Shown here piece after piece: positions 17,071 to 38,053 of a stretch of 39,350 nt of DNA. The stretch is from a virus (Duplodnaviria; Heunggongvirae; Uroviricota; Caudoviricetes). Every line of letters starts with the position of its first letter. Position 1 is the stretch's first letter. A program made the position numbers and the translations under genes. The notes below the pieces were generated by a model that saw only the letters and a program-made list of their open reading frames with translations, was not told where the DNA came from and ran no database searches. The stretch spans positions 1 to 39,350 of IMG/VR virus record IMGVR_UViG_2698536590_000009; one strand, written 5' to 3'.

Positions 17071-17097
17071 ACAAAAAAGGGGAGCATTTAGCTCCCC
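17071..17097 (-). terminator. Rho-independent terminator after major capsid gene (GGGGAGC-TAAAT-GCTCCCC followed by U7)
   Basis: Seen in sequence; typical attenuator placement after highly expressed capsid gene. Confidence 0.5.
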
Positions 17098-20092: not shown

Positions 20093-20906
20093 GTTTGCCC
20101 TTCTCCGTTAAAAATTCGTCGGGTAGTTTCTGAGGGGCGTAGATCGGCAGTGCATCGCAACTGCAATAAACCTCCTCCCCAGCAGCAGTGATTTCGTCAT
20201 AAAAACCATATACGGGCTTAATCAGCCCCTGCTCCAGCGCCCACGAATTGCGGAGGAGATAAATTTTCTCGTCGCGCTCTTTGTGGTCCTGTCGGTATTT
20301 GTAGCCCGGACGCCGCCAGTTAGAATGCCAGCGCAGAGCAATCGCTCCACTCTGAACAGCCAGCAGATACTTAACGTTGCTTGCCAGCTTATGCCCCTGG
20401 TCAATTGCCACCCGGCGACTGATAAAATCCATATCCTTCACGGACTTATGAAAACCGGACTTCACTTCCCAGCGATCAATTTCGCTCACCCCGTCAGGCG
20501 GAATGGACGTAACCCACCCCTGAAAACGCTGTATGGTTTTCTCGATGGCCTGTTCGCGGTTGAGTTTTATCAGGTTGGCACTGGCGAAAATTCGCCTGTC
20601 GAGTTCCTTGCGAAACTCAGGTTTCAGTTTTTCAACAGTGACTTTTTTAGGGCCGTCAGGAGGCTGCTCCCGTAATGCCCCGCCGTCGATGACAAGACGG
20701 CTGTAGATGGCGGTGAGATGTTTTCTGGCTACGGTATCATCAGGGGTTTCTCGCTGAGCGGCTACACGGAGTTTCCGGCACCATTCGAGCAATGATTTTT
20801 CGCTATCCCACCCGTGATTTACGTAGTAGTTAACGGCATCCGTCAGAACCTCATATAGCGTCCTGATCCGTTTCTTCTTCCTCACCGCCCGGCTGGAAAT
20901 TGCCAT
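20073..20906 (-). CDS. Minor head morphogenesis protein (Mu gpF-like)
   Basis: Position immediately after portal; ATG at 20906 with AGGAG SD (track ORF extends to 21044 inside portal gene). Confidence 0.5.
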   Translation of the reverse strand: MAISSRAVRKKKRIRTLYEVLTDAVNYYVNHGWDSEKSLLEWCRKLRVAAQRETPDDTVARKHLTAIYSRLVIDGGALREQPPDGPKKVTVEKLKPEFRKELDRRIFASANLIKLNREQAIEKTIQRFQGWVTSIPPDGVSEIDRWEVKSGFHKSVKDMDFISRRVAIDQGHKLASNVKYLLAVQSGAIALRWHSNWRRPGYKYRQDHKERDEKIYLLRNSWALEQGLIKPVYGFYDEITAAGEEVYCSCDALPIYAPQKLPDEFLTEKGKREFNRA

Positions 20907-22287
20907 CAGGCGTCTCCTGCTTCGGTGGTTCATAATTCGCCAGCGCGTCCACATCAATGATGAGTGGAGCTTCGCCATAGGTTTGCGTGGCATTAACAAG
21001 GCTTGCCAGCCATTCAGTGACGGCGGCACGGTTTTCAGGATCAACCTGTGGCGACACGGCAGAGAAAAGTGCTATCGCCTGTTGAATCACTTTACTGTCG
21101 CTTTCCCGGCGTTTGTCCGGCGACTCCTCCACCAGCTCCTGCCATGTCGCGGTAAATTCACGTCGCCACTGGTAAAACGTGGTTTTATAGTCATCAGTTA
21201 TGATGTCCGGGTAATCATTTTTCAGCGACTGATAAAATTCCTCGTTCCAGGCGATGTACTGCACCAGGCGTTCGAAATAATCCATCACAGGTTCAATCTG
21301 CTGGCGTACACCATCGATATACTGGCTGATAGCTTTCGAATCCTCAGTTCCTTCACCGAAACCATTCGAGAAAGCCTCCTCCTTGATGAGAATCGCGGGA
21401 ACATCGCTACCTGATGCAATATCGGAAATAATGTTGTCGCGGGCGGCATTTAGCGCGCCATCGATGTTTTGTAAATTCAGCGAGGTAACGTCCTCATCCT
21501 TCCCGATACTAAGCACACCTTTATTTTTTGCCTCTTTAACATTTTCCCTTTTTCGTCCCGTGGCGGCAGCCATGATCCCGTCAAGTTTCGAACCATACTG
21601 CACAACTTTAGCCACCAGTACGCCTGCCTTCTGGCTGACGAGATCATTCGCCTCCATCGTATTGATATAGGATTTCAGGGAATAAAGAACGCGCTGAAAC
21701 ACGCTTCGCCCGGTGAATCCGAACGATGAACTCTGAAACTCCAGATAAATCGGTGTGCCATTGAAAATTTTCAGTGTGCGTGACGGATGCCAGTCTTTTC
21801 CGCCAATCTTCAGCTTTTTATTGGCTTCCTGGAAAAACGGGCTGTTTGGGTTCTGGTCAGTCACCATCGAACCAGAAGCGTTCAACGGGTCCCACGCGTT
21901 GATATACACATCATCTTCTGTCAGTCCGAATGTCGGAAGCGGCTCACGACATGGAACACTGTCGGTGCCCACGCCGATCGCTGCGGCACCGTAGCAACGA
22001 GACAGAAAAAACAGATTTTTAATCTTCTCGTTAACCTTCATACGTTCCCATACCTCCTGGAAACGCCGCACAACCCGCTCGTCAGGGTCTGTCTCCACGT
22101 TGTACTGACGCGGCTTACACATCGCCATAAGTATGGGTTTTTCGACAAGTTTTCCGCCCAGAGGATGGAATTGCCACAGCTGCTTACACAATTCATAGCC
22201 AATGTCGGTTCCCGGCTGAATTTCTTCAGCCTCAAGAATATGCATCAGTGCTGAACCGAGGCCGCCAGTAATCTCGATCTCTGCCAT
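20851..22287 (-). CDS. Portal protein
   Basis: About 478 aa, acidic C-terminus, directly downstream of terminase large subunit; ATG 22287 with AGGA SD. Confidence 0.7.
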   Translation of the reverse strand: MAEIEITGGLGSALMHILEAEEIQPGTDIGYELCKQLWQFHPLGGKLVEKPILMAMCKPRQYNVETDPDERVVRRFQEVWERMKVNEKIKNLFFLSRCYGAAAIGVGTDSVPCREPLPTFGLTEDDVYINAWDPLNASGSMVTDQNPNSPFFQEANKKLKIGGKDWHPSRTLKIFNGTPIYLEFQSSSFGFTGRSVFQRVLYSLKSYINTMEANDLVSQKAGVLVAKVVQYGSKLDGIMAAATGRKRENVKEAKNKGVLSIGKDEDVTSLNLQNIDGALNAARDNIISDIASGSDVPAILIKEEAFSNGFGEGTEDSKAISQYIDGVRQQIEPVMDYFERLVQYIAWNEEFYQSLKNDYPDIITDDYKTTFYQWRREFTATWQELVEESPDKRRESDSKVIQQAIALFSAVSPQVDPENRAAVTEWLASLVNATQTYGEAPLIIDVDALANYEPPKQETPDGNFQPGGEEEETDQDAI

Positions 22288-22305
22288 CAAAAATATCCTG
22301 ATTTT

Positions 22306-23634
22306 TTACAACGCCGCGTAATTACCGTGCGCGATAATCAATCCATAGGTATAACAATCGAAAAGGTCATCAGCACGTTTATGTGCGTCTTTGTCTGCCA
22401 GGTGGAACCCGGCGATTTGTTTAATGAGGTGGTTTGCGGTGGTACGTTTGAATGAAACGGTCTTGTCGTAAGCCTCCCGGGCGATTTTGCACATCCCCTG
22501 ATAGTGGTAGCTGGATGCCATCACCGCCCGTTCGTCTTTACCTTTGCTGGTTAGTGCCGATTTAATCGGCGTCATATCCCAGCCTTCGGTTTCCGCCTTC
22601 TGGTTGAGGATTGCCCCCATCGCGGCGTCTTCCATAAAAATTCCCTGGCAGCCCAAACGCGGACGGCATAATTTCGCGAGGCGCTCGAGGTTTTCATAAA
22701 CGCCGGGGATATATTCAGGAAGCAATGACGCTTTAATTTGCGTCACATCCCAGTCAATAATCGTCAGTTTTGGCTCGTCCGAATACGTTGACTCATAAGC
22801 GAAATACACCACGCCAGTACCATCATTTTCGGTCCCGCCTTTCAGCGCCGTATCCATCACTGCGAAAATCATGTCGCAGTACGGCGGCATCTCAATTGGC
22901 TGACCGTCCACCAGCAGCTTATCGACATCGAGTAACGCGTCTTTGGACCAGTCCACGAACTCGGCAAGATATTCCTGCTGCCAAACGCGCGGATCGGATT
23001 TCTTCTCCGTTTCCTCCAGTTCTTCTTTCGGAATGTACGGATTCGATGAAGTTGGCGCATGGTGCATGACAAATCCCAGGGATTCATCGTGGCATATCGC
23101 GTAGAAAAAATTGCTCTCGTCGATACCGTTTGGTGTGGAAAATACCCACGCACAGCCACGGTAATCAACAAGCGTCGGGCGTATAGCGCGGGGCCAGATT
23201 TCCTCGAGCATTTCCGGCGATTTAGTGAATGCGGCCTCATCAATCAGCACAGCGTGATATTTACGCCCACGCCCGGCCAGTTTGTTATTGTCCGTTACCC
23301 AAAAGTCGATGCGCCCCCCATTACGGAGAATAATGCGCTTTTCATTTTTTGACTGGCTGAGGATCAGCGGTTGCAGAACGGCGCTAATTTCATCCCAGAT
23401 TTCCTGGTACTGTCGGTATTGTGCGGTAAAAATCCCCACCCTACCCGCGATAAGCTGCCCGGTGGTAGGAACGGCAAATTTCCGCGTCGCGAAACTGGTA
23501 GCGATGTTCACCAGCATCACCGTTTTACCCCAGCGACGACCACAGCATACCGCGTGGAAGCGTTCCTCTATTGCCGCCGTCCATGCAGCTATTTGCCCCT
23601 CATGAGGTTTTGGGAGGTAGATTTCAATCGACAT
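22306..23634 (-). CDS. Terminase large subunit
   Basis: Walker A (CCGRRWGKT) and Walker B-like (VLIDEAA) motifs; 442 aa; overlaps small-subunit stop. Confidence 0.85.
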   Translation of the reverse strand: MSIEIYLPKPHEGQIAAWTAAIEERFHAVCCGRRWGKTVMLVNIATSFATRKFAVPTTGQLIAGRVGIFTAQYRQYQEIWDEISAVLQPLILSQSKNEKRIILRNGGRIDFWVTDNNKLAGRGRKYHAVLIDEAAFTKSPEMLEEIWPRAIRPTLVDYRGCAWVFSTPNGIDESNFFYAICHDESLGFVMHHAPTSSNPYIPKEELEETEKKSDPRVWQQEYLAEFVDWSKDALLDVDKLLVDGQPIEMPPYCDMIFAVMDTALKGGTENDGTGVVYFAYESTYSDEPKLTIIDWDVTQIKASLLPEYIPGVYENLERLAKLCRPRLGCQGIFMEDAAMGAILNQKAETEGWDMTPIKSALTSKGKDERAVMASSYHYQGMCKIAREAYDKTVSFKRTTANHLIKQIAGFHLADKDAHKRADDLFDCYTYGLIIAHGNYAAL

Positions 23635-24715
23635 TATCCACTCCCGGCATCGGCAGAGAGTTGTGGATAATTATTTCGTTATTCTCACCACCCACACCTT
23701 TTTTGAGGTTTTCAATCTCAGTGCGCAGCTTTTCGTTGCGAAGCCTCAGTCCTTCAAGCTCCAGATCATTGCGACTGTCAGTTGCACCACCAGCAGAACT
23801 TCCTTTCGTCGCCGTTATCAGCTTGATAAGTTCGCGCCGGGCGGCAGCCTTATCCTCCAGCAGGATCTCAACGCCGAATTTTCCGAGCTTTGCCCCTGCA
23901 TATAATTGCCGCGCATCCCCATCAAGCAGAGCGGTATCAGCCATATAAAGCTGTCCCATTCCCTCACCGCAGCACTTCGGGCAGTCCAGATTGGGTATGG
24001 CGTTATCAACAAAGCCAAGGCCTCCATATTCCGGCTCGGGTTTGCCATCTCTGGAGGCCTGTGCCGCTGCCTTATCGAATTCTGCAATATCACGCCACTG
24101 GTAGAGGTGATTCTCGCCCCAGCAATAACGGCAGTTAACACGGCGAAATTGTGCCAACTGATTGGGGTCGGCCTGGACAATGGCCATCAACTGACTCACC
24201 AGTAAATCCAGGTCTGCGGTATAGCGTTTCTGATACTGATTGCGGAAGTAGCTGATAGCACGATAAACCCTGGCATTTCTAAGCATACGGCTGGCGTTGC
24301 TGTTAGCTGTCGCACCTTGCCCCTCATAACCAGCCAGTCGGTATGCCTCTGTCGGCTTTTTCCCCTGAGCAACAAGCATCGCAAACTTAGCCTGCTGGTC
24401 AGAAATGCCGAATTCATCGGGGCAGAACGAAAATTCCTCCGCGTCGCCCTCATTCAGGCACGCATCGGATACTGGCTTTTTTTTCTGAGATTTTCCGTTC
24501 CGCTTTTGCGCAGTCTGCGCAGATTTTTTCTGCGCACTTTGTTGCGCAGTTTTGCGCATTTCTGTCTGCGCATTTTTCGGAGGTTTTTTGATGTAACGAC
24601 GGGCTGTTGCGTAATTCAGTCCCCTTGCCTCACACCATGCCACCGGGGATACACCGGAGCGGGTGTATTCAGCAATATATTCCTGCTGCAACGCCCCCCA
24701 GTCCGGTCTGCTCAT
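23624..24715 (-). CDS. Terminase small subunit-like DNA-binding protein
   Basis: N-terminal HTH-like segment, basic/Cys-rich region, immediately upstream of and overlapping large terminase. Confidence 0.55.
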   Translation of the reverse strand: MSRPDWGALQQEYIAEYTRSGVSPVAWCEARGLNYATARRYIKKPPKNAQTEMRKTAQQSAQKKSAQTAQKRNGKSQKKKPVSDACLNEGDAEEFSFCPDEFGISDQQAKFAMLVAQGKKPTEAYRLAGYEGQGATANSNASRMLRNARVYRAISYFRNQYQKRYTADLDLLVSQLMAIVQADPNQLAQFRRVNCRYCWGENHLYQWRDIAEFDKAAAQASRDGKPEPEYGGLGFVDNAIPNLDCPKCCGEGMGQLYMADTALLDGDARQLYAGAKLGKFGVEILLEDKAAARRELIKLITATKGSSAGGATDSRNDLELEGLRLRNEKLRTEIENLKKGVGGENNEIIIHNSLPMPGVDNVD

Positions 24716-24718
24716 TAG

Positions 24719-24928
24719 TTAGTCCTGATTTTTATCCACCCTGAGTAGTTCACGCAGGGCAAAGGCATCCCCTTTTCTGGCAAGCTTAAACAATGCCGCC
24801 CGTAGTTCGGCTTCACCTTTCGCTCTGCCCTTACGGATGGATGCGTAAAAATCTGTCATTGCTTCCCGATTTTCTTTCAGTCGGTTCAGATCAACATCCA
24901 GAACGTCAGCGATTTGTTGTGCAGTCAT
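24719..24928 (-). CDS. Small hypothetical protein (start uncertain)
   Basis: Track ORF 24719..24970 overlaps upstream gene; shorter ATG starts possible. Confidence 0.3.
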   Translation of the reverse strand: MTAQQIADVLDVDLNRLKENREAMTDFYASIRKGRAKGEAELRAALFKLARKGDAFALRELLRVDKNQD

Positions 24929-25838
24929 CCGGCACGCTGCCAGAGACTCTACTTTCGAATACGGAATCATTTGTCACCCCCATTGATATGCAGGGTGTCT
25001 TCTTCCTGTATTTTTCGTGAAGGATTTTTACTGCAGCGTTGTTCCAGGTGACCTGATGGTGAATGCGTTTATGGCTGGCACCCATCAGTGAGATTTTTAC
25101 GCACGACGGCGCATACATGACGGAGTAAAAACTTTTAACGTAGGTTCCGGAGTCCAGATACAGCTCGGTCATTCCGCCGCTGTTTTTCTGCGTCTGTTTC
25201 TGCCCTAACTGGACAGCACCGATCGTCATAAACAATTCACCACAGCGACCAAGATTCGTATACGTATTCACATCCTCGTTAATGCGCCCCATGAATGAGA
25301 ACGGTCGATCAACGGAACAGATAAAACTGTTCATTGCCTTGCGTTTCACCCACGAAGCATGGCCGCCATTGTCACCAAGAAAATCTCCGCCCTGCGACAT
25401 AGCGATGGAAAGCGCAGGTATTGATTCGTAGTACGCCAGCATTTCAGAAAGGATCGCATCCAGTTTTCTTATCGGGAAATAGGCCTGGTCATAGTTGCGA
25501 TCCACCCGAAACTGGAACTCGTGATAATCATCATCGAGCTGAATGAAGTATTTACACCCGACCAGTTTTGCCAGGTCGAAACAGGCATTACGGGCGTAAA
25601 AAATTGATCGGCGGTCACCGAAATTATCGGCTTCGTCAAAACGACTGGCGATATCGGCTTTGGAAAACACCAGCACCTGTTCACTAAATTCAGCTATGTA
25701 GTGATGCCGTGTATTATCTTCATCATCAACAACGATAAAAATTTTCCCGGTATAGCCAGCACGACGCAACGTCCGGTAAGTCAGAACTTTGTCCGGTCGC
25801 CCGTGAGTCAGAATAAAGGCGCAAAAATCATCACGCAT
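24906..25838 (-). CDS. Hypothetical protein with DxD-type acidic motifs (IVVDDED, QLDDDY); possible nucleotide-sugar transferase-like or DNA-modification enzyme
   Basis: ATG at 25838 preceded by GGAGGAGGAGG SD (overlaps ParB-like stop by 8 nt); motif reading only, no confirmed family. Confidence 0.4.
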   Translation of the reverse strand: MRDDFCAFILTHGRPDKVLTYRTLRRAGYTGKIFIVVDDEDNTRHHYIAEFSEQVLVFSKADIASRFDEADNFGDRRSIFYARNACFDLAKLVGCKYFIQLDDDYHEFQFRVDRNYDQAYFPIRKLDAILSEMLAYYESIPALSIAMSQGGDFLGDNGGHASWVKRKAMNSFICSVDRPFSFMGRINEDVNTYTNLGRCGELFMTIGAVQLGQKQTQKNSGGMTELYLDSGTYVKSFYSVMYAPSCVKISLMGASHKRIHHQVTWNNAAVKILHEKYRKKTPCISMGVTNDSVFESRVSGSVPDDCTTNR

Positions 25839-26610
25839 ATTCCTCCTCCTCCCCGCCATGCATGATCTCCACCATACGCTGCGTCATCCGGACAAATCCA
25901 TTTTCAATAGCCTGCTGATAATCAATGATCACCAGCGCCGATTCCTCGAAAAAGCACTGAATTTCAGCGGGGGCGTGAGCGTAATAGTCCGCAATTCTGC
26001 TGAAATTAAACACCGTATGACGTTCTGCCGCACACAGGAGGAATTTCTCAATATCAGGATCAAGGGACGCCGAACGTATCCGGCTGATCAACTCCTGAGT
26101 TTTCGTATCGTCGTACAGTTCACTGATATCTGGTTTATCGCCCGACGGCTCATAAACAGGCGTATCAATTTTCGTCGTGTACGGTTCCTCCTCATTTCCT
26201 GTACCGGGCAAAACATCCGTCAACAGTTCATCAATTTCTGTCGGGCTGAATCCTGTCAGGGAGATATCAAAATCAGCATTGATTAGGTCCGACAGCTCCA
26301 TCCGTAACAGATCTTCATCCCAGCCAGCATTCATCGGCAGGCGATTATCTGCCAGGCGGTACGCCTTTTTCTGATCATCCGTCAGACCAGACAGAACAAT
26401 AACCGGAACCGAATCCATTTTGAGCGCCTCAGCCGCCATAACGCGACCGTGACCAGCAATAATTTCGCCCTTTTCATCAATCAGCACTGGATTAGTCCAG
26501 CCGAATTGCTTAATGCTTTCTACCAGTTGTGCCACCTGCTCAGGGCTGTGTGTCCTGGCATTGTGTGCATACGGAGACAGTTCTTGTAACGGGCGATACC
26601 AGTGATGCAA
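25831..26610 (-). CDS. ParB-like nuclease domain protein (ParB/Srx fold)
   Basis: N-terminal LSPYAHNARTHS...NPVLID...IAGHGRV matches ParB N-terminal domain signature; acidic C-terminus. Confidence 0.7.
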   Translation of the reverse strand: MHHWYRPLQELSPYAHNARTHSPEQVAQLVESIKQFGWTNPVLIDEKGEIIAGHGRVMAAEALKMDSVPVIVLSGLTDDQKKAYRLADNRLPMNAGWDEDLLRMELSDLINADFDISLTGFSPTEIDELLTDVLPGTGNEEEPYTTKIDTPVYEPSGDKPDISELYDDTKTQELISRIRSASLDPDIEKFLLCAAERHTVFNFSRIADYYAHAPAEIQCFFEESALVIIDYQQAIENGFVRMTQRMVEIMHGGEEEEYA

Positions 26611-26938
26611 TATCCTGCTGGTGGATGAACGACAGAATCTTCACCGAAATCACCGATACCAGTACCGCGCAAAGCGCGTCGAGAGATGTGCTGTGTAGCC
26701 CCAGTTTTTCGACCAGATAAGACGCCATGACATCCGCCCCCAGCACGCCAACGATAAACGACACCAGAAAATGCGCCGCCACACGCCAGACAGAAATCTG
26801 CTGGGGTATCGTCGCCACAAACAACGCCCCGGCGAATGCACCAAACACAATCCCGAAATCCGTTCCGGTAAACAGTCCAAATACCGTCGCCCCACCGAGC
26901 GCCGCAGCCGTACCGGAACCGGATAAGGGTTCAGACAT
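26540..26938 (-). CDS. Holin-like small membrane protein (3-4 predicted TM segments)
   Basis: ATG 26938 with GGAGG SD; Gly/Ala/Phe-rich hydrophobic segments; position before terminase genes as in lambdoid lysis cassettes, but no endolysin adjacent. Confidence 0.4.
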   Translation of the reverse strand: MSEPLSGSGTAAALGGATVFGLFTGTDFGIVFGAFAGALFVATIPQQISVWRVAAHFLVSFIVGVLGADVMASYLVEKLGLHSTSLDALCAVLVSVISVKILSFIHQQDIASLVSPVTRTVSVCTQCQDTQP

Positions 26939-26953
26939 GCTTTTTCCTCCCAC

Positions 26954-26979
26954 AAATAAAAAAGGGCCGCCAGCGGCCC
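26954..26979 (-). terminator. Rho-independent terminator (GGGCCGC-loop-GCGGCCC + U-run) immediately upstream of holin-like gene
   Basis: Seen in sequence. Confidence 0.45.
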
Positions 26980-27065
26980 GTAAAAACACCCTGTCAAAGG
27001 CACCCGCAGATGCCTTTTGTGTGGTGTTATCTGATGTGATGTGCGCCGGGCGTGGCGCGGATATG

Positions 27066-27127
27066 AAAAAGGCCCGCCGGAGCGAGCCATAAAAAACTGA
27101 ATAAAAAAAAACCGCCAGGTGCGGCGG
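27066..27127 (-). terminator. Repeat R copy A: tandem pair of intrinsic terminator hairpins (CCGCC..GGCGG + U9 and GGCCCGC..GCGAGCC + U5)
   Basis: Seen in sequence; near-identical copy at 27746..27806. Confidence 0.5.
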
Positions 27128-27383
27128 TTAAGGATGTATTTCCGGGCTTGGCTTAGTATATGACCAATCACAGTTTTGTTTTTGTCGATGTTTACAACAT
27201 CAGAATAATGCATTTAAAGTAGTAAAAATATTTGCTAATAATGCATTATTCCGATGGTGTAAAAAATGGCACTGGAACCGCAACGAATATCACTCATTAC
27301 AGAACAGGGGGCGCAAGGAACCATAAAAAACACCCTACATATATTATGTCAGTGCCTAACACAATCTCGCCTTAGTTACTGTT

Positions 27384-27456
<73 letters not shown>

Positions 27457-27625
27457 ATACTGTGCTGGCCCCCGGAATAACACGAATTACCAAGAGAGCC
27501 CGCACTGGTCTTTCCGGTGGCAAACAGCACCCCTGCTAACATAAAAGATAAACACCTTCCAGACGCAAAAATACTAACAACTGTTTTTCAGATATCCAAA
27601 ATATATTTGGTTTTTATTTTTGAAA

Positions 27626-27645
27626 ATATGTATACATATGTATCA
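27626..27645. repeat. Motif M copy 1: ATATGTATACATATGTATCA (internal direct repeat of ATATGTAT), about 170 bp upstream of tRNA-Gly-like gene
   Basis: Second copy ATATGTATAAATATGTATCA at 28441..28460 upstream of tRNA pseudogene. Confidence 0.4.
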
Positions 27646-27745
27646 TAAATATACAAGCCATATCATAACCGAATTAAAAATCTTTAGTTATCTCTTTTGC
27701 CGTCTGATCACCACCCACCGGCAGCTGAGAATTCCGGCACACAAT

Positions 27746-27806
27746 GAAAAAGGCCCGCCAGGGCGAGCCATAAAAACTGAATAAAAAAACCGCCCGGGGC
27801 GGCGGC
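27746..27806 (-). terminator. Repeat R copy B: second tandem pair of terminator hairpins, paralogous to 27066..27127
   Basis: About 60 bp nearly identical to copy A. Confidence 0.5.
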
Positions 27807-28170
27807 TAAAACGATAAAAGGACACAATATTATAATGATTATTGGGTTTGGGGCATCGGGTGCCTCCCGAAGTATTCCACTTTACGTGGATACTGTGGTT
27901 TCCCGCTAAACCGACTCTATAAACCACCCTCGCACTGAGGAACGCCCCAATTCATGTTTTCCGACACAGAGATGGCGCATCACTGGTTACTCCACGCTAA
28001 ATCCTGCTTCCTTTCGTGGGCAATGCGCCATTTCTGTGTCATAAAAAATACAGCACTGAGTCTGTAACCGATCTCCATTACAGAATGAGGGACGATAAAG
28101 GTATTAAAGAGATCTGTTCCTCACGAAAACCGCCAGTGCTGTAAAAACTTGTCCAAAAAACAATGAAGTT

Positions 28171-28239
28171 GCGGAGAACAGGAATCGAACCGGCATTACC
28201 AACCTAAGGCTGATGTAATAACCACTATACGATACCTGC
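28171..28239 (-). pseudogene. Degenerate tRNA-like sequence, paralogue of the tRNA-Gly-like gene (acceptor, anticodon and T stems disrupted)
   Basis: Shares GCRGGYATCGTATARTGGYTATTAC...GGTTCGATTCC with the copy at 27385..27456 but stems do not pair. Confidence 0.45.
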
Positions 28240-28440
28240 ATATAGAGCAGGCCTCCGTAACCACAATAATGACACTGATACTGATAACAGCCCTTCATTA
28301 TGATTAAACGGATGCCAGCAATGACCCGCAAGACAGCGGGTAACACCCCTGTGAACAGAAACTTGCTGCCTTTCGGGTCGAGAGTAATATTACCGATAAT
28401 TTATATGACATCAAAAACTAATTAGTTTTCATATTTAAAC

Positions 28441-28460
28441 ATATGTATAAATATGTATCA
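28441..28460. repeat. Motif M copy 2 (ATATGTATAAATATGTATCA)
   Basis: See copy 1. Confidence 0.4.
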
Positions 28461-28761
28461 GACGCATACAATTTATGTTATTTCATCCAGACTTCTGATT
28501 TCTCACAGGAAATTGCGAAAAAAAAACAACATAAAAATGAACAAATTGGGAGTACGCTAACTCCGTTGTCGCAATAAATCACAGTAAGCTCTTCAGAAAT
28601 AACAGTTCACAAGACTTACATCAACAGTAGTTTTTGTAATGATTAATGTTAACTGTAGCGTTGAAAAGAAAAGTTTTGACGAAATATGGTGAACTAACAG
28701 AGCCTAACGAATAGCCCTATTACGCCGAGCTAATAGCGCTGCCAGCTAAACTTGCATGGAA

Positions 28762-28838
28762 TGGTCCGCCACCGAGGACTCGAACCTCGCACAATCAACT
28801 TAGAAGGTTGATGCTCTATCCCGATGAGCTAGTGGCGG
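28762..28838 (-). tRNA. tRNA-Arg (anticodon UCU), phage-encoded (argN-like position in lambdoid late region)
   Basis: Manual cloverleaf with encoded CCA; anticodon loop CUUCUAA; rare-codon AGA/AGG decoder typical of lambdoid phage tRNA islands. Confidence 0.8.
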
Positions 28839-28840
28839 AA

Positions 28841-28916
28841 TGGTGGCCCTTGCTGGATTTGAACCAGCGACCTGGCGATTATGAGTCGCTCGCTCTCACC
28901 ACTGAGCTAAAGGGCC
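28841..28916 (-). tRNA. tRNA with CAU anticodon, closely resembling E. coli tRNA-Ile2 (ileX-type, lysidine-dependent); ileZ-like phage tRNA
   Basis: Manual cloverleaf with encoded CCA; strong resemblance to remembered ileX sequence; Met identity cannot be excluded from sequence alone. Confidence 0.8.
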
Positions 28917-29056
28917 GATTGAAAAATATTGACTGAATCAGTTTAGCGCTGTAATCCACCCAACACAACCGTTTAAATCTTGTATGTCAGCTACAATCAA
29001 GTAAAAATATCTGAACAACAAGCAGAAAAGTCTATATCCCGGTTACTCATAATGTT

Positions 29057-29770
29057 TTAGCGCACTTTGACTATATTAATTTCAAATTCATCTGTATGTG
29101 CGCTATTAAGTATAACGAAATTCGTACTACCGTGCCTGTACGATTTTGATAAAACCAAGCGATCACCATAGCGAGCAAGAACGTAATACCAAACGCTCTC
29201 ATAGTGAAGTGTCTGATACTCCTTCTTAAACTGAGGTTTGTACCATCCAGCAATAAGCGAAAACAACCAGAAATAGAGCATGAATCCGGCCATAACACAC
29301 TCAATCTTGTGATGCCGAATAAAAGACACTTCAGAAATACATTTAACGTAAATAAACTTCCTGCCCGTTCTGACGAACATGGTAATTATTAATGCCACAA
29401 TAGCGCATAAAACCAATGCATCTGGTACAAAGTGCTGATGAATTACCGAAAACTCCAGAGCCGGAGGAACAAAAAGCAACAATATCGCAAGAAAAAGCCT
29501 GACAGCACTCAAATCCTTCATATTATTTTTTTGTTTGATCCCCAGAAAGAAGACAATACCGATCCCCCATCCAGCCAAGAATATAACGATAACTGTGACA
29601 GCATAAAACAGGCTTCTGGCCACATCATCAACACCGGCCCCGACAACCCACCATGGAAAGCCATAGTAAAAGGAAGTACCCCAGCCATAGAAATAAGCAC
29701 TTCCCCACCCAAGACACCCCATGTAAGCAACAAAAAGTGAAGAATTCCTGAGCAGAGTACTGTCACTCAT
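29057..29770 (-). CDS. Polytopic inner-membrane protein of unknown function (accessory/moron gene between Q terminator and tRNA island)
   Basis: About 237 aa, 4-5 hydrophobic helices then a short soluble C-terminus; strongly AT-rich; ATG 29770 with GAGG SD. Confidence 0.55.
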   Translation of the reverse strand: MSDSTLLRNSSLFVAYMGCLGWGSAYFYGWGTSFYYGFPWWVVGAGVDDVARSLFYAVTVIVIFLAGWGIGIVFFLGIKQKNNMKDLSAVRLFLAILLLFVPPALEFSVIHQHFVPDALVLCAIVALIITMFVRTGRKFIYVKCISEVSFIRHHKIECVMAGFMLYFWLFSLIAGWYKPQFKKEYQTLHYESVWYYVLARYGDRLVLSKSYRHGSTNFVILNSAHTDEFEINIVKVR

Positions 29771-30109
29771 AATCATCCTCTAACAACTTAACAACATTAA
29801 CTCGCTTTACATAACAAAGAAAATTCCATGTAGTCAAGAGGGTTCAGGAAAGGAGAAACTAAAATTGCATAGCCATCATAAAGTTTAACGTACCAACCTG
29901 CTTTTTCAGGTATAAAAAAACCAACCTCAAGGAAAGGCTGGCATAAGAAAAGTAAATAATGATTCCACTAAAACTTCGTCGCAGGAGGAATCCTGTGCCG
30001 CTTAACATACATAAAATTTAGACAACTAACAATCACAATATAAAATATTTAAGATTTCGTTATCAAAATACCAGTCAGTAGAGCGCCAGCTCTCCCGTAG
30101 ATGGTTAAA

Positions 30110-30138
30110 CATAACAACAAAACCCGCTCAATGGCGGG
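30110..30138 (-). terminator. Candidate tR'-type terminator downstream of Q (CCCGC-TCAATG-GCGGG + U-rich tract)
   Basis: Hairpin about 86 nt after Q stop, position analogous to lambda tR'. Confidence 0.45.
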
Positions 30139-30223
30139 TTCTGGTGAAGTTCATGCGATTAATTCGCCACGCGATACAGCTTTGCGAAGCGTATCGGAAT
30201 TGAAGCAGTTTATGCGTAAGAAA
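30139..30223 (-). promoter_or_regulatory. Probable late promoter / Q-utilisation region (PR'-like)
   Basis: Positional inference only (between Q stop and terminator); no confident -35/-10 assignment. Confidence 0.25.
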
Positions 30224-30766
30224 TCAAGCCATTTTTTGAGCAAATGATTCTCGCATGGGAATGTATAGCGCACACTCAGCAACAGCCAACCAATTAGCAA
30301 TTCGCTTTTCGCATGTGCTAAAACAACACTCTGGATACTGTTCGTTTAGTAACCCGGCCATCCTTCTCTTACTCATTCCTCGCCCCTCATACCGTTGTCG
30401 GAGGATGCTAATCAATCCCGGATGTTCTGCCAGCACCTCACTTATAACCCGATCAATACATAACGCCTCTGCATCAGTACAATGCGCCAGCCAGCTCTTT
30501 TGCTTACCATTGATCATCTCTCGCAAAAACGCTTCCAGCTCAGGTTTCTCTATTCCCGCTTTTTTCATTCTGCGCAGGGCTTCATTGATGGCTGTTTTCG
30601 TCAATTTTTTGGATGCCAACAACTGATTGAACATATTTCCTGACCTGCCACCACCAATATATGACCAGCGCCCCCACATACGTAGTTTTCCCTGAATCCA
30701 GACACTTTCCAGCGTAGTGAGACGAAGGTGTTCTCCGCTTTTTCCTGTATTCGTTGGGTAAATCAT
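30224..30766 (-). CDS. Late-gene antitermination protein Q-like
   Basis: 180 aa; position immediately upstream of late promoter/terminator; RMWGRW segment resembles the RWGAW segment of Q family proteins (recollection). Confidence 0.5.
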   Translation of the reverse strand: MIYPTNTGKSGEHLRLTTLESVWIQGKLRMWGRWSYIGGGRSGNMFNQLLASKKLTKTAINEALRRMKKAGIEKPELEAFLREMINGKQKSWLAHCTDAEALCIDRVISEVLAEHPGLISILRQRYEGRGMSKRRMAGLLNEQYPECCFSTCEKRIANWLAVAECALYIPMRESFAQKMA

Positions 30767-31053
30767 AAATATCCCTCCTTTCTCCAGATTTCTTGTGTGC
30801 GAAAAACACCTTCTGCATGCATCAGGCGTAATTCTTCTTTGGTGTAATCACTGGTTTTTACCCGCCCGTCGATTAAATCGTGGCACGATCTACAGGCAAT
30901 CGCTGCCTGCATATCGTGTGGTTTTGCCGCTGTTCCGCACGTCCCCGCCAGTCGGTAATGCGCCAGCACAGAAGTTTCGGGATTGTGATTGCAGTAGCCA
31001 GGAATTCTGACGGTGCACATCTGCCCCCGCGCCGCTTTACGTAAATCCACCAT
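30763..31053 (-). CDS. Cys-rich nin-region protein (YbcO/DUF1364-like, putative nuclease)
   Basis: 96 aa with C..C...C..C..H pattern; location just upstream of Q as in DLP12. Confidence 0.45.
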   Translation of the reverse strand: MVDLRKAARGQMCTVRIPGYCNHNPETSVLAHYRLAGTCGTAAKPHDMQAAIACRSCHDLIDGRVKTSDYTKEELRLMHAEGVFRTQEIWRKEGYL

Positions 31054-31664
31054 TACGCAAACTCCAGTAACTGTGCGACCACATTTTCGACTTCCTCCGG
31101 AGAGGAAAATTTACGGAACAGGATCCAGTTCCACAGCACATTCAGTACAGATTTATAAACCTGCTGAAACTCGGTTTCGTCCATATTCGCAAAAGCGATG
31201 GATTTCGCCCGGCGTCCACGGCTACCGTCCGGATAAAAATGCTCGGTGTAAAATCCGGCCTGAATGGTTATCCATTCGCGAAAAGCGTCAAATGACTTGA
31301 GTAAGGCCGTATCCCGGGTTCTGCGAGTCGCAACGGTGTTAAGGTATTGCTCTGCAGCATCACTAAGGGCTGGCGTATGTTCCCGACCTACTGATTCGCA
31401 CAGGAAATCAACGAAACCGGACACCAGTTCTCGTTCGCGAGGCGTGATCACCCCACCGACCGGAGTCCAGTAATCGAATCCCAGTTGCAGGAGTTTGAAA
31501 AAACGCTTGTGGAATGAGTAGTTACGCACACGCTTAAAGTCTGCGTGTATCCACTCACCTATTTTGATTTGATGCAAAAAATCGCAACTCTCCGGCGTCG
31601 CCGGGAGAAGTAATCCGGAAGAGGTTTGTTTGACCAGTTGTATATGCGCCATTGCTGTCTCCAA
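31053..31664 (-). CDS. nin-region protein (DUF1367-like)
   Basis: 203-aa ORF; positional and general resemblance. Confidence 0.4.
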   Translation of the reverse strand: METAMAHIQLVKQTSSGLLLPATPESCDFLHQIKIGEWIHADFKRVRNYSFHKRFFKLLQLGFDYWTPVGGVITPRERELVSGFVDFLCESVGREHTPALSDAAEQYLNTVATRRTRDTALLKSFDAFREWITIQAGFYTEHFYPDGSRGRRAKSIAFANMDETEFQQVYKSVLNVLWNWILFRKFSSPEEVENVVAQLLEFA

Positions 31665-31711
31665 TGGCGCTGTAGGTTGCCAGTTGTTCAGGCTGGCTTA
31701 CGAATTATAAC

Positions 31712-31885
31712 TCATTCCCGAATCACCTTGAAACCGAGCCTTTCAAGATATTCAATGAATGCCTCGATAGATAAAATTACATGATTATCAGGGATTAACG
31801 TTGCGTAGATAACTTCCCCATTCTCAACGCGCACAGCAAAGAGGCCATTTTCACTAAAAATTTCACGTAATTCTTCAATTTTCAT
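31712..31885 (-). CDS. Small hypothetical protein (57 aa)
   Basis: Below track threshold; manual translation MKIEELREIFSENGLFAVRVENGEVIYATLIPDNHVILSIEAFIEYLERLGFKVIRE; GGAAGG SD 9 nt upstream. Confidence 0.3.
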   Translation of the reverse strand: MKIEELREIFSENGLFAVRVENGEVIYATLIPDNHVILSIEAFIEYLERLGFKVIRE

Positions 31886-32002
31886 CAACAGAATCCTTCC
31901 AGATAAATAGCACCCCCCTGTTCGGGGTCCATCCCTCTTCTCCCTGCGCGCTACTTAAGTATTTTTGATTCTATTCCGGCATCGTCCATAACTTCAAACG
32001 TA

Positions 32003-32036
32003 TTGAAAATAAAAACAAAAACCCGCCGAAGCGGGT
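32003..32036 (-). terminator. Rho-independent terminator downstream of hok (ACCCGC-TTCG-GCGGGT + U-rich tract)
   Basis: Seen in sequence. Confidence 0.5.
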
Positions 32037-32105
32037 TAAGTGCGGGTGCGTTGAAGATGCCTGACACATCATAGGCGGCGAGGGATTTCTCCCTCGCCTG
32101 GTCTC

Positions 32106-32261
32106 TTACTCCTCAGGTTCGTAAGCTGTGAAGACAGCGACCTCCGTCTGGCCGGTTCGGATTCGTACCTCGCAGAGGTCTTTCCTCGTTACCAGTGCCG
32201 TCACTATGACGGTTAAACAGATGACGATCAGGGCGATTAACATCGCCTTTTGCTGCTTCAT
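32106..32261 (-). CDS. hok: Hok/Gef-family type I toxin (HokD/RelF-like, 51 aa)
   Basis: MKQQKAMLIALIVICLTVIVTALVTRKDLCEVRIRTGQTEVAVFTAYEPEE matches remembered HokD sequence; track ORF extends in-frame to 32318. Confidence 0.85.
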   Translation of the reverse strand: MKQQKAMLIALIVICLTVIVTALVTRKDLCEVRIRTGQTEVAVFTAYEPEE

Positions 32262-32551
32262 AGCCTGCTTCTCCTTGCCTTTCGGCACGTAAGAGGCTAA
32301 CCTACATTTGTGAGACATAGATTGGGCCTCAGATTAATGTTAAGCGTCTTGCAGGACGCGTAATGTTAACTGGGGCTTTTCTCTATCTGCCTTTGGTGTT
32401 CATGCCCGAGGCAGATAGCCTCAAGCACCCGCAGCAATTCTACTTAACTCTCCTTTTCCCGCAAACCGTTTTTATCCCCAGCGGCAAATCGAATACACCA
32501 CCAGCGCCACCGCCATCGCAATTCCTACCGTGGTGAATGCCTCAGGCCGGG

Positions 32552-33256
32552 TCATTGATTCACCTCCTGCGGCGGTTCTGGTAGCGGCATCCAGTGAGTT
32601 GAGCTCTCTACTTCGACGCCGTCTTTGTCTACAAAAGCCATCTTATTCCCGCCACGAGTGGGGCAAAAAACCTTATCCCAGGAACCGGGGAATACATTCC
32701 CGAGATCATCGAGAAGAATCACATCGCAATATTCAGCAGGAACTGCATCACTACAGCTTATCCAGCCAGCCGGAGTTCCCGGAGAGCTGGTTGACGTTTC
32801 CGAGATTTCCCGAAAATTGTTGGTTGACGAATTCTTACTTTCCCGAAAGTTTTCGGCCTGAAGCATGGCGACACGGCAGGCGTTCCAGCCATCAGCATAT
32901 GTTTCAGTTACACCGTCGAGATGGCAGGTAAGCAAATCCATTTCATCAGGCACTACCATCGCTGGCGGCGCTGCGTAAAGCGGTGTTATTTCTGCCCGAA
33001 AATCACCTACTTTATGCAGTCGCACCCACCGTTCGATTTCTGCTTTGTCAGAATTCATAAGGGTGAACGTATTACATTCATGGTTAATTTGCGTGAAGGT
33101 TGCCTTCCACGCCACCGGCTCTGCTTCCAGTGATGCCAGTGCAATTTTGAATAACTCGCCCTCTACCTGCGCCATCCCTGAATTTGAGTGGCATTTCGCA
33201 ATCGCTATTTTTAATTTGGCTTCTTCGATTAATTGCTCTTTGGTTAATTCAGTCAT
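32552..33256 (-). CDS. DUF551-like phage protein
   Basis: C-terminal GWIS...HWMPLPEPP resembles DUF551 signature common in lambdoid nin regions. Confidence 0.45.
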   Translation of the reverse strand: MTELTKEQLIEEAKLKIAIAKCHSNSGMAQVEGELFKIALASLEAEPVAWKATFTQINHECNTFTLMNSDKAEIERWVRLHKVGDFRAEITPLYAAPPAMVVPDEMDLLTCHLDGVTETYADGWNACRVAMLQAENFRESKNSSTNNFREISETSTSSPGTPAGWISCSDAVPAEYCDVILLDDLGNVFPGSWDKVFCPTRGGNKMAFVDKDGVEVESSTHWMPLPEPPQEVNQ

Positions 33257-33386
33257 TTTTCATTACCGCCCTTTCAGGCGGCCTCCTGATGTTCTGAGGG
33301 TGCAGAAATCCCTCCGGTTAAGGATTTAATAAAATTCACTTCTGATTTAAATTTTCAGTATTTTGTTGTCAGGTGGTTTATCGCCT

Positions 33387-33698
33387 TTATGCTTCAGTCT
33401 TATTTCTCAGCCATACACAAACAGGACCATCTTCAGTGTCATGAATGGAACCAATGAACCAGCCTTCACCTTCCGGGCGCTCCGGTTTCCAAGAGGCAAT
33501 ATCGGGACCATCTGCGTCCAGATTAAAATCATCTTCATCCATAGTTCTGATGGTCCATTGAAGATTATTTTCCTCCATCCATGCGTTAAACTCTTCCGTT
33601 GAAATATGTTCTCTACCATCACAGAATTTTTCATATTCAGGATGCGTCCAGCAGCCATATTCATCACGTACTACTGGTATTTCTTTAATTTCATTCAT
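33387..33698 (-). CDS. Hypothetical acidic phage protein
   Basis: Track ORF, 103 aa. Confidence 0.35.
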   Translation of the reverse strand: MNEIKEIPVVRDEYGCWTHPEYEKFCDGREHISTEEFNAWMEENNLQWTIRTMDEDDFNLDADGPDIASWKPERPEGEGWFIGSIHDTEDGPVCVWLRNKTEA

Positions 33699-33945
33699 TT
33701 CTGTTCTCCCACGTTTTCAGACTTTCACCACAGAACGGACAAAATGAAACCCGCACTGGTAATTTAGAAAATTCACCGGAACGCAACATCACCAAATCAT
33801 GGTCGCGAGTTAAATTCTCATTCCAGATTTTGTATATCAGCAGACCTTTTCGCGTCGTGTATTCAGCATCATGCTCAAGGGCTTTTGCCAGTACCGCACA
33901 TGGTTCTATCTGATTGCTATTAACCTGACATTTTGATTCGCTCAC
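33691..33945 (-). CDS. Small Cys-containing protein (possible zinc ribbon)
   Basis: 84 aa with C..C and CPFC motifs; overlapping starts/stops with neighbours. Confidence 0.35.
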   Translation of the reverse strand: MSESKCQVNSNQIEPCAVLAKALEHDAEYTTRKGLLIYKIWNENLTRDHDLVMLRSGEFSKLPVRVSFCPFCGESLKTWENRNE

Positions 33946-34379
33946 AGCATCACCTCCTGAAATTCCCCCTGATAAAACGCCAGCACTCGCTGCATAACCT
34001 CACTCTTCCGGCACTCGCGACAGATTATGTTCTGACGCCTGTCGTAGCGGCGTATTTCTCCGTCAGGTAATGACCTGATAAGGTCCGGATCAACCACAGC
34101 CGTTTTCTTCACCTTTGCCCTCGATAGTTTTTTGCGGGCGTTTTGCCAGTCCTTACGAGCCTGTTCAGAGGGAAATAGCCCGTAGCCGGAGTTATATACA
34201 TCGCCACTGGCAACCAGCTCTCTGGCGAGAACGCTCATTAAATATCTTGTCGCACCTGTCTTAGCTTCAAGTTGTCGTAACGTCTCGCGCCCATTCTGGC
34301 GCACGAGTTCAACAACCTGCCCCTTAATTTTTTCCCGCTCTTCTTGTGTAAATACTTTTGCCATAAGCGCCTCCGGCAA
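33942..34379 (-). CDS. Hypothetical phage protein
   Basis: 145-aa ORF, basic, Cys pair near C-terminus. Confidence 0.35.
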   Translation of the reverse strand: MPEALMAKVFTQEEREKIKGQVVELVRQNGRETLRQLEAKTGATRYLMSVLARELVASGDVYNSGYGLFPSEQARKDWQNARKKLSRAKVKKTAVVDPDLIRSLPDGEIRRYDRRQNIICRECRKSEVMQRVLAFYQGEFQEVML

Positions 34380-35141
34380 TCACTTTTCCGATACAACACA
34401 GCGGGAAGAATCAGTAATCTGGCGAACAATATCCCGGTGCTTGTTCAACTCCCGCAGCGCGGCGCAGACACGCTCCCACTTCTGGACATGGCTTTTCGCC
34501 CGACGCAGTTTGCGGTTTGCCAGATGCAGCGATGGCAAAATCAAATCATCCGCCCGCGTTTCGGTAAACGATGGCAACGACTGCACAATGTCCGCTACAG
34601 TATCTGTTTTAATTTCTTCCTGTGTTGCAGCCTCCTGTACTGGTAACGCAACACCTGCGGGCTGAGGAAAAGCCTTACCATCAGTTTCCGCTACCGATGC
34701 TGCTTTCGGCTCTGCTGGTAAATTATCGCCCGGTATGCAGTAACGAAATTTACCGCCCTGATTTACGCGAATCAGACGACCTTTGCTGATTGCCATTGCC
34801 AGCGTTGAAGCCACTTTGCGTGATGTGGTACCAAACAATGTAGCCAGTTCATCCGCCGTTTGTGGTCCGCGTTGTTCAATCGTCGCGGTTAAATCGCACT
34901 CTGAGATTTTCGCTACTGTCGCCGTGCTGGTTTCTTCCGGCTGTTCTTCTGGCGCTGGCTGTTCCTGCTGAACGTTGTTATCAGCCACACGCCAGGTGTA
35001 TGCGCTTTTATCAACGAAGCCAGCCTTTTTCAGTTCCCACAGCTCGTTCAGTACTTCTTCACGACTGATATCAAGTCGCGCAGCCAGCTCTACCGACGTG
35101 GCTTTTCCCATCGCTTTCAGTGCGTCAAAAACAGTCTCCAT
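34380..35141 (-). CDS. Putative DNA-binding protein with repeated winged-helix-like segments
   Basis: 253 aa; two segments resembling wHTH ([17 protein letters not shown]..., [16 protein letters not shown]...). Confidence 0.4.
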
Positions 35142-35161
35142 AAATTTCCTCCCGGTAAAAA

Positions 35162-35908: not shown

Positions 35909-35914
35909 GGTCTG

Positions 35915-36703: not shown

Positions 36704-36780
36704 TTGTTTTCACCTTGTAACGCTCGCAGCGTTACATTTAACTGATACCGAACAAAACAATCCGGCACGATTAATTTCAA

Positions 36781-37203: not shown

Positions 37204-37462
37204 GAATCAACTCCTGTGCATTTTGTGTGTTAGCCTTACATCCAACAGGTAAACCATCGGTCGGATTCGGGTAGATATCAGGCCGGAGTTCATGAGGTGT
37301 AACCTCGAAATTCGTAGCCTCTGCGATACGCAATACCTTTTCAGGGCTTAACTGACTACGTCCAGTAGCAACGAGGCTAATCATTGATTGCGAACAACCA
37401 GCCAGCGCGGCCAAACAAGACTGTCGTACACGATTTTTTTTCAAATATTCATCTAATGTCAT
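37187..37462 (-). CDS. Cro-like HTH regulator (YdaS family)
   Basis: ATG 37462 with GGTGA SD; HTH-like segment; divergent from repressor gene. Confidence 0.55.
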   Translation of the reverse strand: MTLDEYLKKNRVRQSCLAALAGCSQSMISLVATGRSQLSPEKVLRIAEATNFEVTPHELRPDIYPNPTDGLPVGCKANTQNAQELIHENQA

Positions 37463-38031: not shown

Positions 38032-38053
38032 CCCCCACTACCTCGTAACTAAA

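Follow-up and report, generated by a model that had tools for sequence, protein, structure and literature searches.

The window, i.e., the whole stretch of 39,350 nt that was analysed (IMG/VR record IMGVR_UViG_2698536590_000009), comes from a lambda-like (lambdoid), phiP27-like prophage of Escherichia coli. The closest named phages are phiP27 (Stx2e) and SerU-LTIIb, and strain VG48B2 is 100% identical over a 1.5-kb stretch around the terminator stack that is the subject of this analysis. This sister copy in VG48B2 also carries several pseudogenes.

The phage genes around the stack are all encoded by the minus strand. In its 5' to 3' direction, nin-region genes (DUF1367, YbcO) are followed by a gene for a 180-aa DUF1133 protein (30766-30224), by a 3.3-kb AT-rich interval containing three tRNA genes, and by a Phage_holin_8 gene (ATG at 26938). 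Beyond the holin gene come ParB/Srx, a TAGT glycosyltransferase and the terminase subunits, after which head, sheath and tail genes extend to position 1; this co-oriented morphogenesis operon downstream of the holin covers 27 kb. The GC content of the interval between the DUF1133 gene, referred to below as Q, and the holin gene is 29-44%, compared with 46-55% in the flanking genes. A preliminary description of this DNA had called the gene at the end of the interval holin-like, and the call was borne out by its Pfam match and by a Shine-Dalgarno sequence in front of the start codon (Table 1).

Table 1. Positions of the features discussed, in 5' to 3' order of the minus strand
Feature	Positions	Strand	Details
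Q-type antiterminator gene (DUF1133, Q21-like)	30224-30766	-	180 aa; 3.3 kb upstream of holin
Conserved post-Q block, candidate PR'/pause/Q-binding region	30150-30227	-	~75 nt, nearly invariant in 81 loci (28 distinct)
tR' candidate	30108-30143 (terminator 30143-30118)	-	CAGAACCCGC/CATTGA/GCGGGTTTTG + UUGUUAUGUU; dG -16.7
Terminator	29913-29942	-	GCCAGCCTT/TCCTT/GAGGTTGGT + U7; dG -12.9, z -4.4
tRNA(CAT) + tRNA-Arg(TCT) pair	28762-28916	-	first: tRNA-Met per ARAGORN, tRNA-Ile per PGAP
Degenerate tRNA of older tandem cassette A	28170-28239	-	Rfam tRNA 31.8 bits; no ARAGORN call
Paralogous T1-T2 copy	27742-27809	-	T1' 27807-27788, T2' 27769-27752; 83-89% identity
tRNA-Gly(TCC), cassette cargo	27384-27456	-
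T1, intrinsic terminator by structure	27129-27101	-	AACCGCCG/CACC/TGGCGGTT + U7-A-UU; stem 27129-27110; dG -11.6 kcal/mol, z -3.6
T2, intrinsic terminator by structure	27088-27061	-	GGCUCGC/UCCG/GCGGGCC + U5; stem 27088-27071; dG -14.6 kcal/mol, z -4.3
H, two-tier hairpin	27028-26982	-	outer CACC/GGTG, inner AAAGGCATC/GGTGCCTTT, then U5
T3, intrinsic terminator by structure	26979-26954	-	GGGCCG/CUGG/CGGCCC + U6-A-U3; stem 26979-26964; dG -12.6 kcal/mol
Holin gene (Phage_holin_8)	26540-26951	-	Shine-Dalgarno GGGAGG 26951-26946, 7 nt before ATG 26938; Pfam E = 9e-21
Deletion junction	26595-26598	-	TATC microhomology
Terminator inside late operon	17071-17097 (hairpin 17097-17079)	-	canonical; after major head gene (17117-18145)

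The Q gene and the region behind it

The Q gene is intact and belongs to the Q family of antiterminators. Its product matches DUF1133 (PF06576, E = 1e-104) and, with 28.4 bits against a cut-off of 26, Phage_antitermQ (PF06530). A profile of 28 homologues searched against the PDB found the phage 21 Q structures (6JNX, 6P18; E = 7.5e-5), collinear over both termini. When an AlphaFold (AF2) model of moderate confidence (pLDDT 65) was compared with the PDB using Foldseek, the nine best matches were Q21 chains (TM 0.58-0.67) and the next had E = 3; identity between the DUF1133 Q and Q21 in the structural alignments is 15-18%. Homologues are named antiterminator, Antitermination protein Q or Late gene regulator in some databases, and DUF1133 is listed as Q by HHpred in one genomics paper (PMC8136144).

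The conserved block behind the gene begins with TTGATT (30227-30222), 17 nt and TTCAAT (30204-30199). This pair of hexamers overlaps the Q stop codon and is a candidate for PR', although the assignment is weak: the putative -10 element has no A at position 2, where one is conserved, and the list of the consensus scan does not contain the site. Five nucleotides after the candidate -10 stands a second -10-like element (TAYGCT among the phages; TACGCT, 30193-30188, in the window), followed by the invariant segment GCTTCGCAAAGCTGTATCGCG, a candidate pause and Q-binding region; the shared post-Q segment reads TTGATTTCTTACGCATAAACTGCTTCAATT..TAYGCTTCGCAAAGCTGTATCGCG.GGCGAA. Another promoter-like site, at 30066-30037, was rejected as PR' since the conserved region directly follows the Q stop codon instead; the block containing it is rare (5/5426 genomes) and absent from other DUF1133-Q phages. 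The terminator at 29913-29942 lies ~95 nt after this rejected site and upstream of a 239-aa ORF.

At the tR' position, a hairpin with a T-run was seen by eye in all 28 distinct post-Q variants (81 loci) and in 21 of them by the strict scan defined below, with stems that differ between subgroups in at least three sequences (CAGAACCCGCC.., AAAAACCGC.., AGACCCCGC..). Block and terminator fall within ~110 nt of the Q stop codon, and homology from phage to phage stops just after tR'. The assignment of this layout to the classical Q/PR'/SDPE/tR' cassette is thereby supported at the level of sequence. In phage 21 the cassette runs in the order Q gene, PR', sigma-dependent pause element, terminator and late genes, and Q-loaded polymerase ignores terminators across tens of kilobases (bioRxiv 10.1101/651190).

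Hairpins ahead of the holin gene

Three GC-rich minus-strand hairpins with U-runs had been described just before the holin gene, and all three are in place (T1, T2 and T3). Their stems of 7-8 bp (T1), 7 bp (T2) and 6 bp (T3) each contain at least five GC pairs, as is expected of intrinsic terminators, and the U-run of T3 ends at 26954, 3 nt upstream of the Shine-Dalgarno sequence of the holin gene. Judged by their predicted structure, the three are confirmed as canonical intrinsic (Rho-independent) terminators. The description of a stack of three therefore stands as to its members but not as to its number, since a further hairpin, H, is a probable fourth terminator of the stack. It consists of an inner stem of 9 bp and an outer stem of 4-6 bp separated by an internal loop, by which it departs from a canonical intrinsic terminator, and has a dG of -19 kcal/mol when folded alone; its run of U5 in the window copy is U6-U7 in relatives. 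The MFE fold of the 211-nt leader keeps all four hairpins (z = -4.78). The U-runs of T2 and H are only 5 nt each in the window copy, which counts against termination there. On the plus strand there is no T-run at T1, T2 or T3, which rules these out as bidirectional terminators; only H has one.

The terminator prediction that had been proposed as a check came out in favour of the hairpins. A strict scan, which required a perfect stem of 6 bp or more that includes four or more GC pairs, a loop of 3-8 nt and six or more T among 8 nt, found 10 sites on the minus strand compared with 0.68 ± 0.69 in 40 dinucleotide-preserving shuffles, i.e., ~15-fold enrichment. Five of the sites lie within 27807-26964 (850 nt), while the shuffles never had more than one per 900 nt, and a looser scan of 20000-39350 gave 42 sites where 21 were expected. 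A chance origin of the terminator cluster is excluded. The preliminary description had also placed terminators inside the morphogenesis operon. This holds for the hairpin at 17097-17079, which is canonical, but less well for the other two: the palindrome of 14 bp at 7542-7509 has a T tail that is weak on both strands, and the 7-8-bp hairpin at 5634-5617 has no more than TTTT on either strand. These two flank an inserted endonuclease island within the tail genes.

To compare relatives, we used 80 IMG/VR loci with a gene for the same holin, with 56 distinct 200-nt upstream regions. Alignment-wide covariation of T1 and T2 is blurred by non-homologous upstream sequences, and loci were compared one by one instead. 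Of the 56 distinct relatives, 53 keep T3 at a distance of 22-26 nt upstream of the ATG; its stem is invariant or changes from GC to GU, and its loop varies (CTGG, ACAG-type, CTGA). At the T1 position (~-172 nt) three unrelated hairpins with a T-run occur, namely AACCGCC...GGCGGTT, GCCCGCCTTATGTGTGGGC and GCCCGTCTCCTGACGGGC, and at the T2 position (~-133 nt) we found GGCTCGC...GCGGGCC, AGGGTTCGTACCAGCGGACCTT, GGGCTGCGCACTTGCGCGGCCT and GGCTCGC...GCGAGCT. Pairing in H is retained in 91% of cells across the 56 relatives, compared with 42-52% in controls with a slid 3' partner; some changes are compensatory (CG to UA), and in several phages a 6-nt insertion is re-paired in another register. Co-oriented strict terminators occur in the last 200 nt of most of the 70 distinct 1.5-kb upstream regions (at least one in 61, at least two in 26, three in 9), counts which are conservative as the scan misses 5-bp variants of T3; an opposite-strand terminator is absent from 46 of these 70 regions. 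These comparisons show, at the level of predicted hairpins, that the terminators are conserved in position and structure while their sequence turns over. That non-homologous hairpins stand at the same positions, and that stems are kept while loops vary, argues for selection on terminator structure.

The ~95-nt block formed by H and T3 is more conserved than its surroundings. It is also found upstream of essD-type holins in other E. coli prophages, and DLP12 of K-12 has only a degenerate version of this block, plus a different terminator. Parts of the block were found in 1275/5426 E. coli genomes, in many different contexts.

Cargo of the interval and loss of lysis genes

T1 and T2 together (27131-27062) make up a 66-nt double-terminator module that is present twice in the window, and the stem differences between the two copies preserve pairing. 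The copies bound a 686-nt tRNA-Gly cassette with an AT-rich upstream region. An older cassette, A, lies upstream and has the same AT-rich motif, and the repeats D1, D4 and D6 recur with a period of ~680-815 nt. Relative L088 matches the window with 99.2% identity over 2.5 kb, from the Q stop codon to 27744, then jumps to 27131, and so lacks exactly one 686-nt tRNA-Gly unit. The tRNA-Gly cassette is likewise absent in relative L008, where T1 of the upstream copy is joined to T2 of the downstream copy; such a hybrid is what recombination between the T1-T2 repeats would be expected to produce.

Other prophages fill the slot differently. An O157:H7 prophage has a T2-like terminator between tRNA-Arg and the TerB/DUF3927 cargo downstream of it, and in phiP27 stx2e occupies the slot and only H-T3 is left before the holin. 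Relative L166 has no cargo, and its leader runs from Q through the conserved block and tR' to T2 after 5 nt, then H, T3 and the holin gene. Because this cargo-free leader retains T2-H-T3, these elements are part of the basic leader. The entry point of cargo is thus between tR' and T2, with cassettes that carry or duplicate T1-T2. Rather than having been built for the holin, the T1-T2 module forms the 3' end of a mobile tRNA cassette that was duplicated. H-T3 stands in front of at least two types of holin gene, irrespective of whether stx2e, TerB/DUF3927 or tRNAs lie upstream.

Cargo genes of this kind are morons, a concept that reportedly goes back to Juhala et al. 2000. The tRNA-Gly cassette shows presence/absence polymorphism (L088, L008) and has its own terminator, as T1-T2 follows tRNA-Gly here and in many relatives. 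A consensus scan found no sigma-70-like site of at least 9/12 on the minus strand at 27742-27456, upstream of tRNA-Gly; the only candidate seen by eye, TTGGAT-17-TAGTAT, reaches 7/12. In Stx phages, for which tR' and morons have been described, the moron site lies 3' of PR', and the Q-holin interval fits this site (PMC4104026, PMC8065619).

The lysis cassette has suffered a deletion. In comparison with L088 and VG48B2, 1319 nt (1.3 kb) have been lost, comprising the 3' end of the holin gene, a second holin, an M15 endolysin and an 84-aa ORF. Holin residues 116-132 are foreign owing to this deletion, and all 80 relatives match residues 1-115 only. A tblastn search found no copy of the deleted lysis genes elsewhere in the window, and the junction occurs in 0/5426 complete E. 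coli genomes. From its gene content the prophage is probably lysis-defective. A longer holin ORF that starts at GTG 26989 and runs through T3 was rejected, as the indels in the T-run and A-run of relatives are not multiples of three.

Antitermination and other readings of the stack

We consider it likely, with a probability of roughly 0.75, that the hairpins are Rho-independent terminators in the late-operon leader of a lambdoid prophage and are read through via Q-type antitermination. The preliminary description had suggested Q-type antitermination, and in silico the locus fits it, with a Q-family gene upstream, a conserved post-Q block and a position-conserved terminator. Its further claim, that late transcription has to cross terminators, agrees with T3 standing 3 nt from the Shine-Dalgarno sequence and with the terminator at 17097-17079 inside the co-oriented head-tail operon. 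The consensus scan found no minus-strand sigma-70-like site at 27245-26938; as there is no room for a promoter between T3 and the start of the holin gene, holin transcripts must cross at least T3.

It had also been proposed that the terminators insulate the lysis and structural genes from tRNA or cargo promoters, of which the promoter-like site found at 27272-27245 by the consensus scan is a possible example. We regard this as a reasonable inference. Given the deletion, the argument holds for the phage lineage and not for the window copy; the lysis cassette is truncated there, which makes the protection of lysis timing moot, and selection for tight lysis control cannot now act on this copy.

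The proposed mechanism would work as follows. In the lysogen, polymerases coming from PR', from tRNA or cargo promoters or from spurious starts would be stopped by successive terminators, and leak-through would fall at each one if each acts independently, so that the lethal holin and the 27-kb morphogenesis operon would be silent. Upon induction, the Q21-like protein would load onto polymerase paused just downstream of PR'. In the RNA-exit channel of the Q-modified polymerase no terminator hairpins would form, and it would read through tR', the cargo terminators, T1, T2, H, T3 and internal terminators such as 17097-17079. The stack may have grown with each cargo cassette that inserted at the moron hot spot, either bringing terminators of its own or duplicating them, and Q would render these accumulated terminators harmless to the phage.

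A nearly even chance, though slightly below it, is given to the reading that independently transcribed morons simply end in these hairpins, which would have no role of their own in late-gene control. It overlaps and is largely compatible with the Q reading, and it explains the origin of T1-T2. This pair is duplicated with its cassette, most often lies ~330 nt behind tRNA-Gly in relatives, and could be accounted for in full as the 3' terminus of a tRNA cassette; the absence of the 686-nt unit from L088 and L008, the T2-like terminator after tRNA-Arg in the O157 prophage and the low GC content of the interval all agree. What it leaves out is the rest of the leader: T2-H-T3 directly follows tR' in the cargo-free L166, and H-T3 accompanies two holin types regardless of upstream content. 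A further point against it is that the consensus scan lists no sigma-70-like promoter reaching 9/12 on the minus strand ahead of tRNA-Gly, and late transcripts must cross the hairpins whatever their origin. The idea that recombination is the main business of the modules, which would be linkers for lambdoid cargo swaps with termination incidental, draws on the same comparisons, i.e., the insertion bounded exactly by the 66-nt repeat relative to L088, the hybrid repeat of L008, the end of phage homology right after tR' and the scatter of block pieces over varied contexts in the 1275/5426 genomes. However, pure linkers would conserve sequence, whereas here sequence turns over and structure stays, and the orientation bias of the T-runs is unexplained by recombination, so we find this improbable. 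Chance hairpins or functionless relics in a decaying prophage deserve hardly any credence: the lysis cassette of the window copy is deleted and VG48B2 has several pseudogenes, but the ~15-fold enrichment over shuffles and the retention of the elements across dozens of distinct phages, many on 40-50 kb contigs, contradict it.

It is also conceivable, but quite unlikely, that H-T3 (and T2) are terminators and Hfq-binding 3' ends of sRNAs that derive from the late leader or the cargo region and are comparable with StxS, EcOnc27, AgvB/AsxR or Pas of pathogenic E. coli prophages. The moron site downstream of PR' is known as a hot spot of sRNAs (PMC4104026), Pas sRNA genes adjoin holin-lysozyme operons (bioRxiv 10.64898/2026.05.13.724894), the ~95-nt H-T3 block is conserved above its surroundings, and the CA-rich GATAACACCACACAAAA before H has the 8-mer GATAACAC in common with the AgvB 5' domain (PMC4104026 supplement). 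Yet the ~42-nt 3' domain of AgvB/AsxR (..TTGCCCGAACCCAYTCGGGC..) has 0 matches in the window with up to 3 mismatches allowed, and AgvB and AsxR are antisense to PR', whereas the elements of the window are sense to the late operon. PasA and PasD (PMC8550237 supplement) gave no match, an exclusion of Pas that is partial as these are fragments only. Rfam searches at gathering and permissive thresholds returned tRNAs and the sok antitoxin only, with no family at threshold for these elements; sub-threshold matches (STnc100, anti-hemB, miRNA precursors) were discarded as driven by generic hairpins, STnc100 reaching 19 bits against a cut-off of 47 on account of the terminators. The consensus scan found no promoter for such an RNA.

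A more speculative proposal, which we think rather unlikely, combines two of these ideas: the terminator modules would be dual-purpose parts of a 'moron dock', both recombination joints and Hfq-binding 3' ends of sRNAs. The 66-nt module and the ~95-nt H-T3 block would then, as portable joints for homologous recombination, let cargo (tRNAs, toxins, TerB and others) insert, duplicate and vanish, sense RNAs with their 3' ends at H or T3 might be stable sRNAs that bind Hfq, and the CA-rich GAUAACACCACACAAAA before H would resemble the GcvB-sponging 5' domain of AgvB.

Returning to Q antitermination, the locus resembles the Q cassette of lambda, 21, 82 and 933W in that the early-right operon ends with a Q-family gene, followed by tRNA/cargo genes, the holin and a long co-oriented operon with internal terminators. 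It differs in its Q, which is of the DUF1133 type and only distantly related to Q21, and in its terminators, as lambda has a single tR' while the Q-holin interval here has eight co-oriented ones, of which four fall in the last 175 nt. Tandem ('double') intrinsic terminators are also known at the ends of highly expressed bacterial operons. Like these, T1-T2 consists of two strong elements of hairpin and U-run ~40 nt apart downstream of an RNA gene, but the pair here lies inside a longer phage operon that needs lytic read-through. Intra-operon terminators are found in phage L (PMC8022706). With the moron site of Stx and other E. coli prophages (PMC4104026; phiP27 stx2e, SerU-LTIIb) the locus shares the slot from Q/tRNAs to the holin, its AT-richness, cargo that is polymorphic between near-identical phages and cargo with its own terminators. 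Unlike that site, it carries a tRNA-Gly cassette and a 239-aa membrane ORF and no toxin, and it lacks the AgvB/AsxR pair of anti-sRNAs that O157 prophages typically have.

This finding is correct but ordinary; it fits the textbook scheme and leaves the accepted view of Q antitermination as it was. What it offers is a clean, conserved example in which a lethal lysis gene and a 27-kb operon would be kept silent behind several terminators while the slot still accepts cargo. The terminators, if measured, would be a natural, compact set of insulators that Q can override. In relatives the same slot holds Shiga and LT-II toxin genes, and gain and loss of cargo there are illustrated by the repeated modules and their recombinant forms (L008, L088).

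Sequences around the holin-proximal hairpin and the tRNA cassettes

A CA-rich tract, AGATAACACCACACAAAAGG, lies immediately 5′ of the two-tier hairpin H, the probable fourth terminator. The 8-mer GATAACAC within this tract also occurs in AgvB, a prophage anti-sRNA, where it is part of the 5′ domain that binds GcvB; the match may be coincidental. In the DLP12 prophage of E. coli K-12 only a degenerate remnant of the block running from H to terminator T3 is found upstream of essD (L167, 5230-5401), and a different terminator, AAACCCGCCGTCGAGCGGGTTT, is located ~140 nt 5′ of that gene.

Both tRNA cassettes carry the AT-rich motif ..ATATGTATA.ATATGTATCA.. and the tRNA of the upstream cassette is degenerate, i.e., it scored 31.8 bits with Rfam and was not called by ARAGORN. 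Between tRNA-Gly and T1, the first terminator of the stack just before the holin gene, there is an inverted repeat that gave sub-threshold matches to miRNA-precursor models and may act as an operator or fold into a long hairpin.

Coordinates of the features, numbered along the window
Feature	Position	Strand	Description
CA-rich tract	27013-27032	minus	
tRNA cassette, upstream	28170-28471		tandem, period ~680-815 nt
tRNA cassette, downstream	27384-27656		tandem, period ~680-815 nt
Inverted repeat	27191-27214 / 27240-27263		24 nt, AT-rich, 92% complementary, 25-nt spacer
Promoter-like site	30066-30037	minus	TTGATA-18-TATATT
Strong terminator	29942-29920	minus	~95 nt after the promoter-like site
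ParB/Srx N-terminal domain protein, then TET-associated glycosyltransferase	24906-26610	minus	
Tail-gene island	5617-7542		within tail genes
ORF without assigned function	6950-7297		in the tail-gene island
Endonuclease	5641-6816		phrog_4225; in the tail-gene island
sok antitoxin RNA	32256-32430	minus	nin region; Rfam 117.7 bits

Cargo and other modules

Downstream of the antiterminator gene Q, the block 29057-30066 contains the promoter-like site and strong terminator, followed on the minus strand by a 239-aa ORF with no Pfam match and PHROG matches to families of unknown function only. This block is rare, being present in 5 of the 5426 complete E. coli genomes and having no match in the phage collection, and could represent a small RNA gene together with a moron (cargo cassette). 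In the nin region, i.e., the genes upstream of Q, the sok match marks a hok/sok-type toxin-antitoxin system; hokD is annotated at the corresponding place in the sister genome (strain VG48B2).

On one side of the island within the tail genes is a perfect palindrome of 14 bp (7542-7509), and on the other a hairpin that looks bidirectional (5634-5617). The ParB/Srx and glycosyltransferase (Pfam TAGT, E = 1e-33) pair, which has the lysis region on one side and the small terminase on the other, may constitute a DNA-modification module.

Deletion in the lysis region

The holin ORF (26540-26938) is affected by a 1.3-kb deletion at a TATC microhomology (26595-26598), which leaves the holin gene fused, at codon 115, to the 5′ end of the ynaK-like ParB/Srx gene. 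This junction was found in none of the 5426 complete E. coli genomes. Lost with the deletion are a second holin, the M15 endolysin and an 84-aa ORF, none of which has a further copy within the window, and the prophage is probably lysis-defective.
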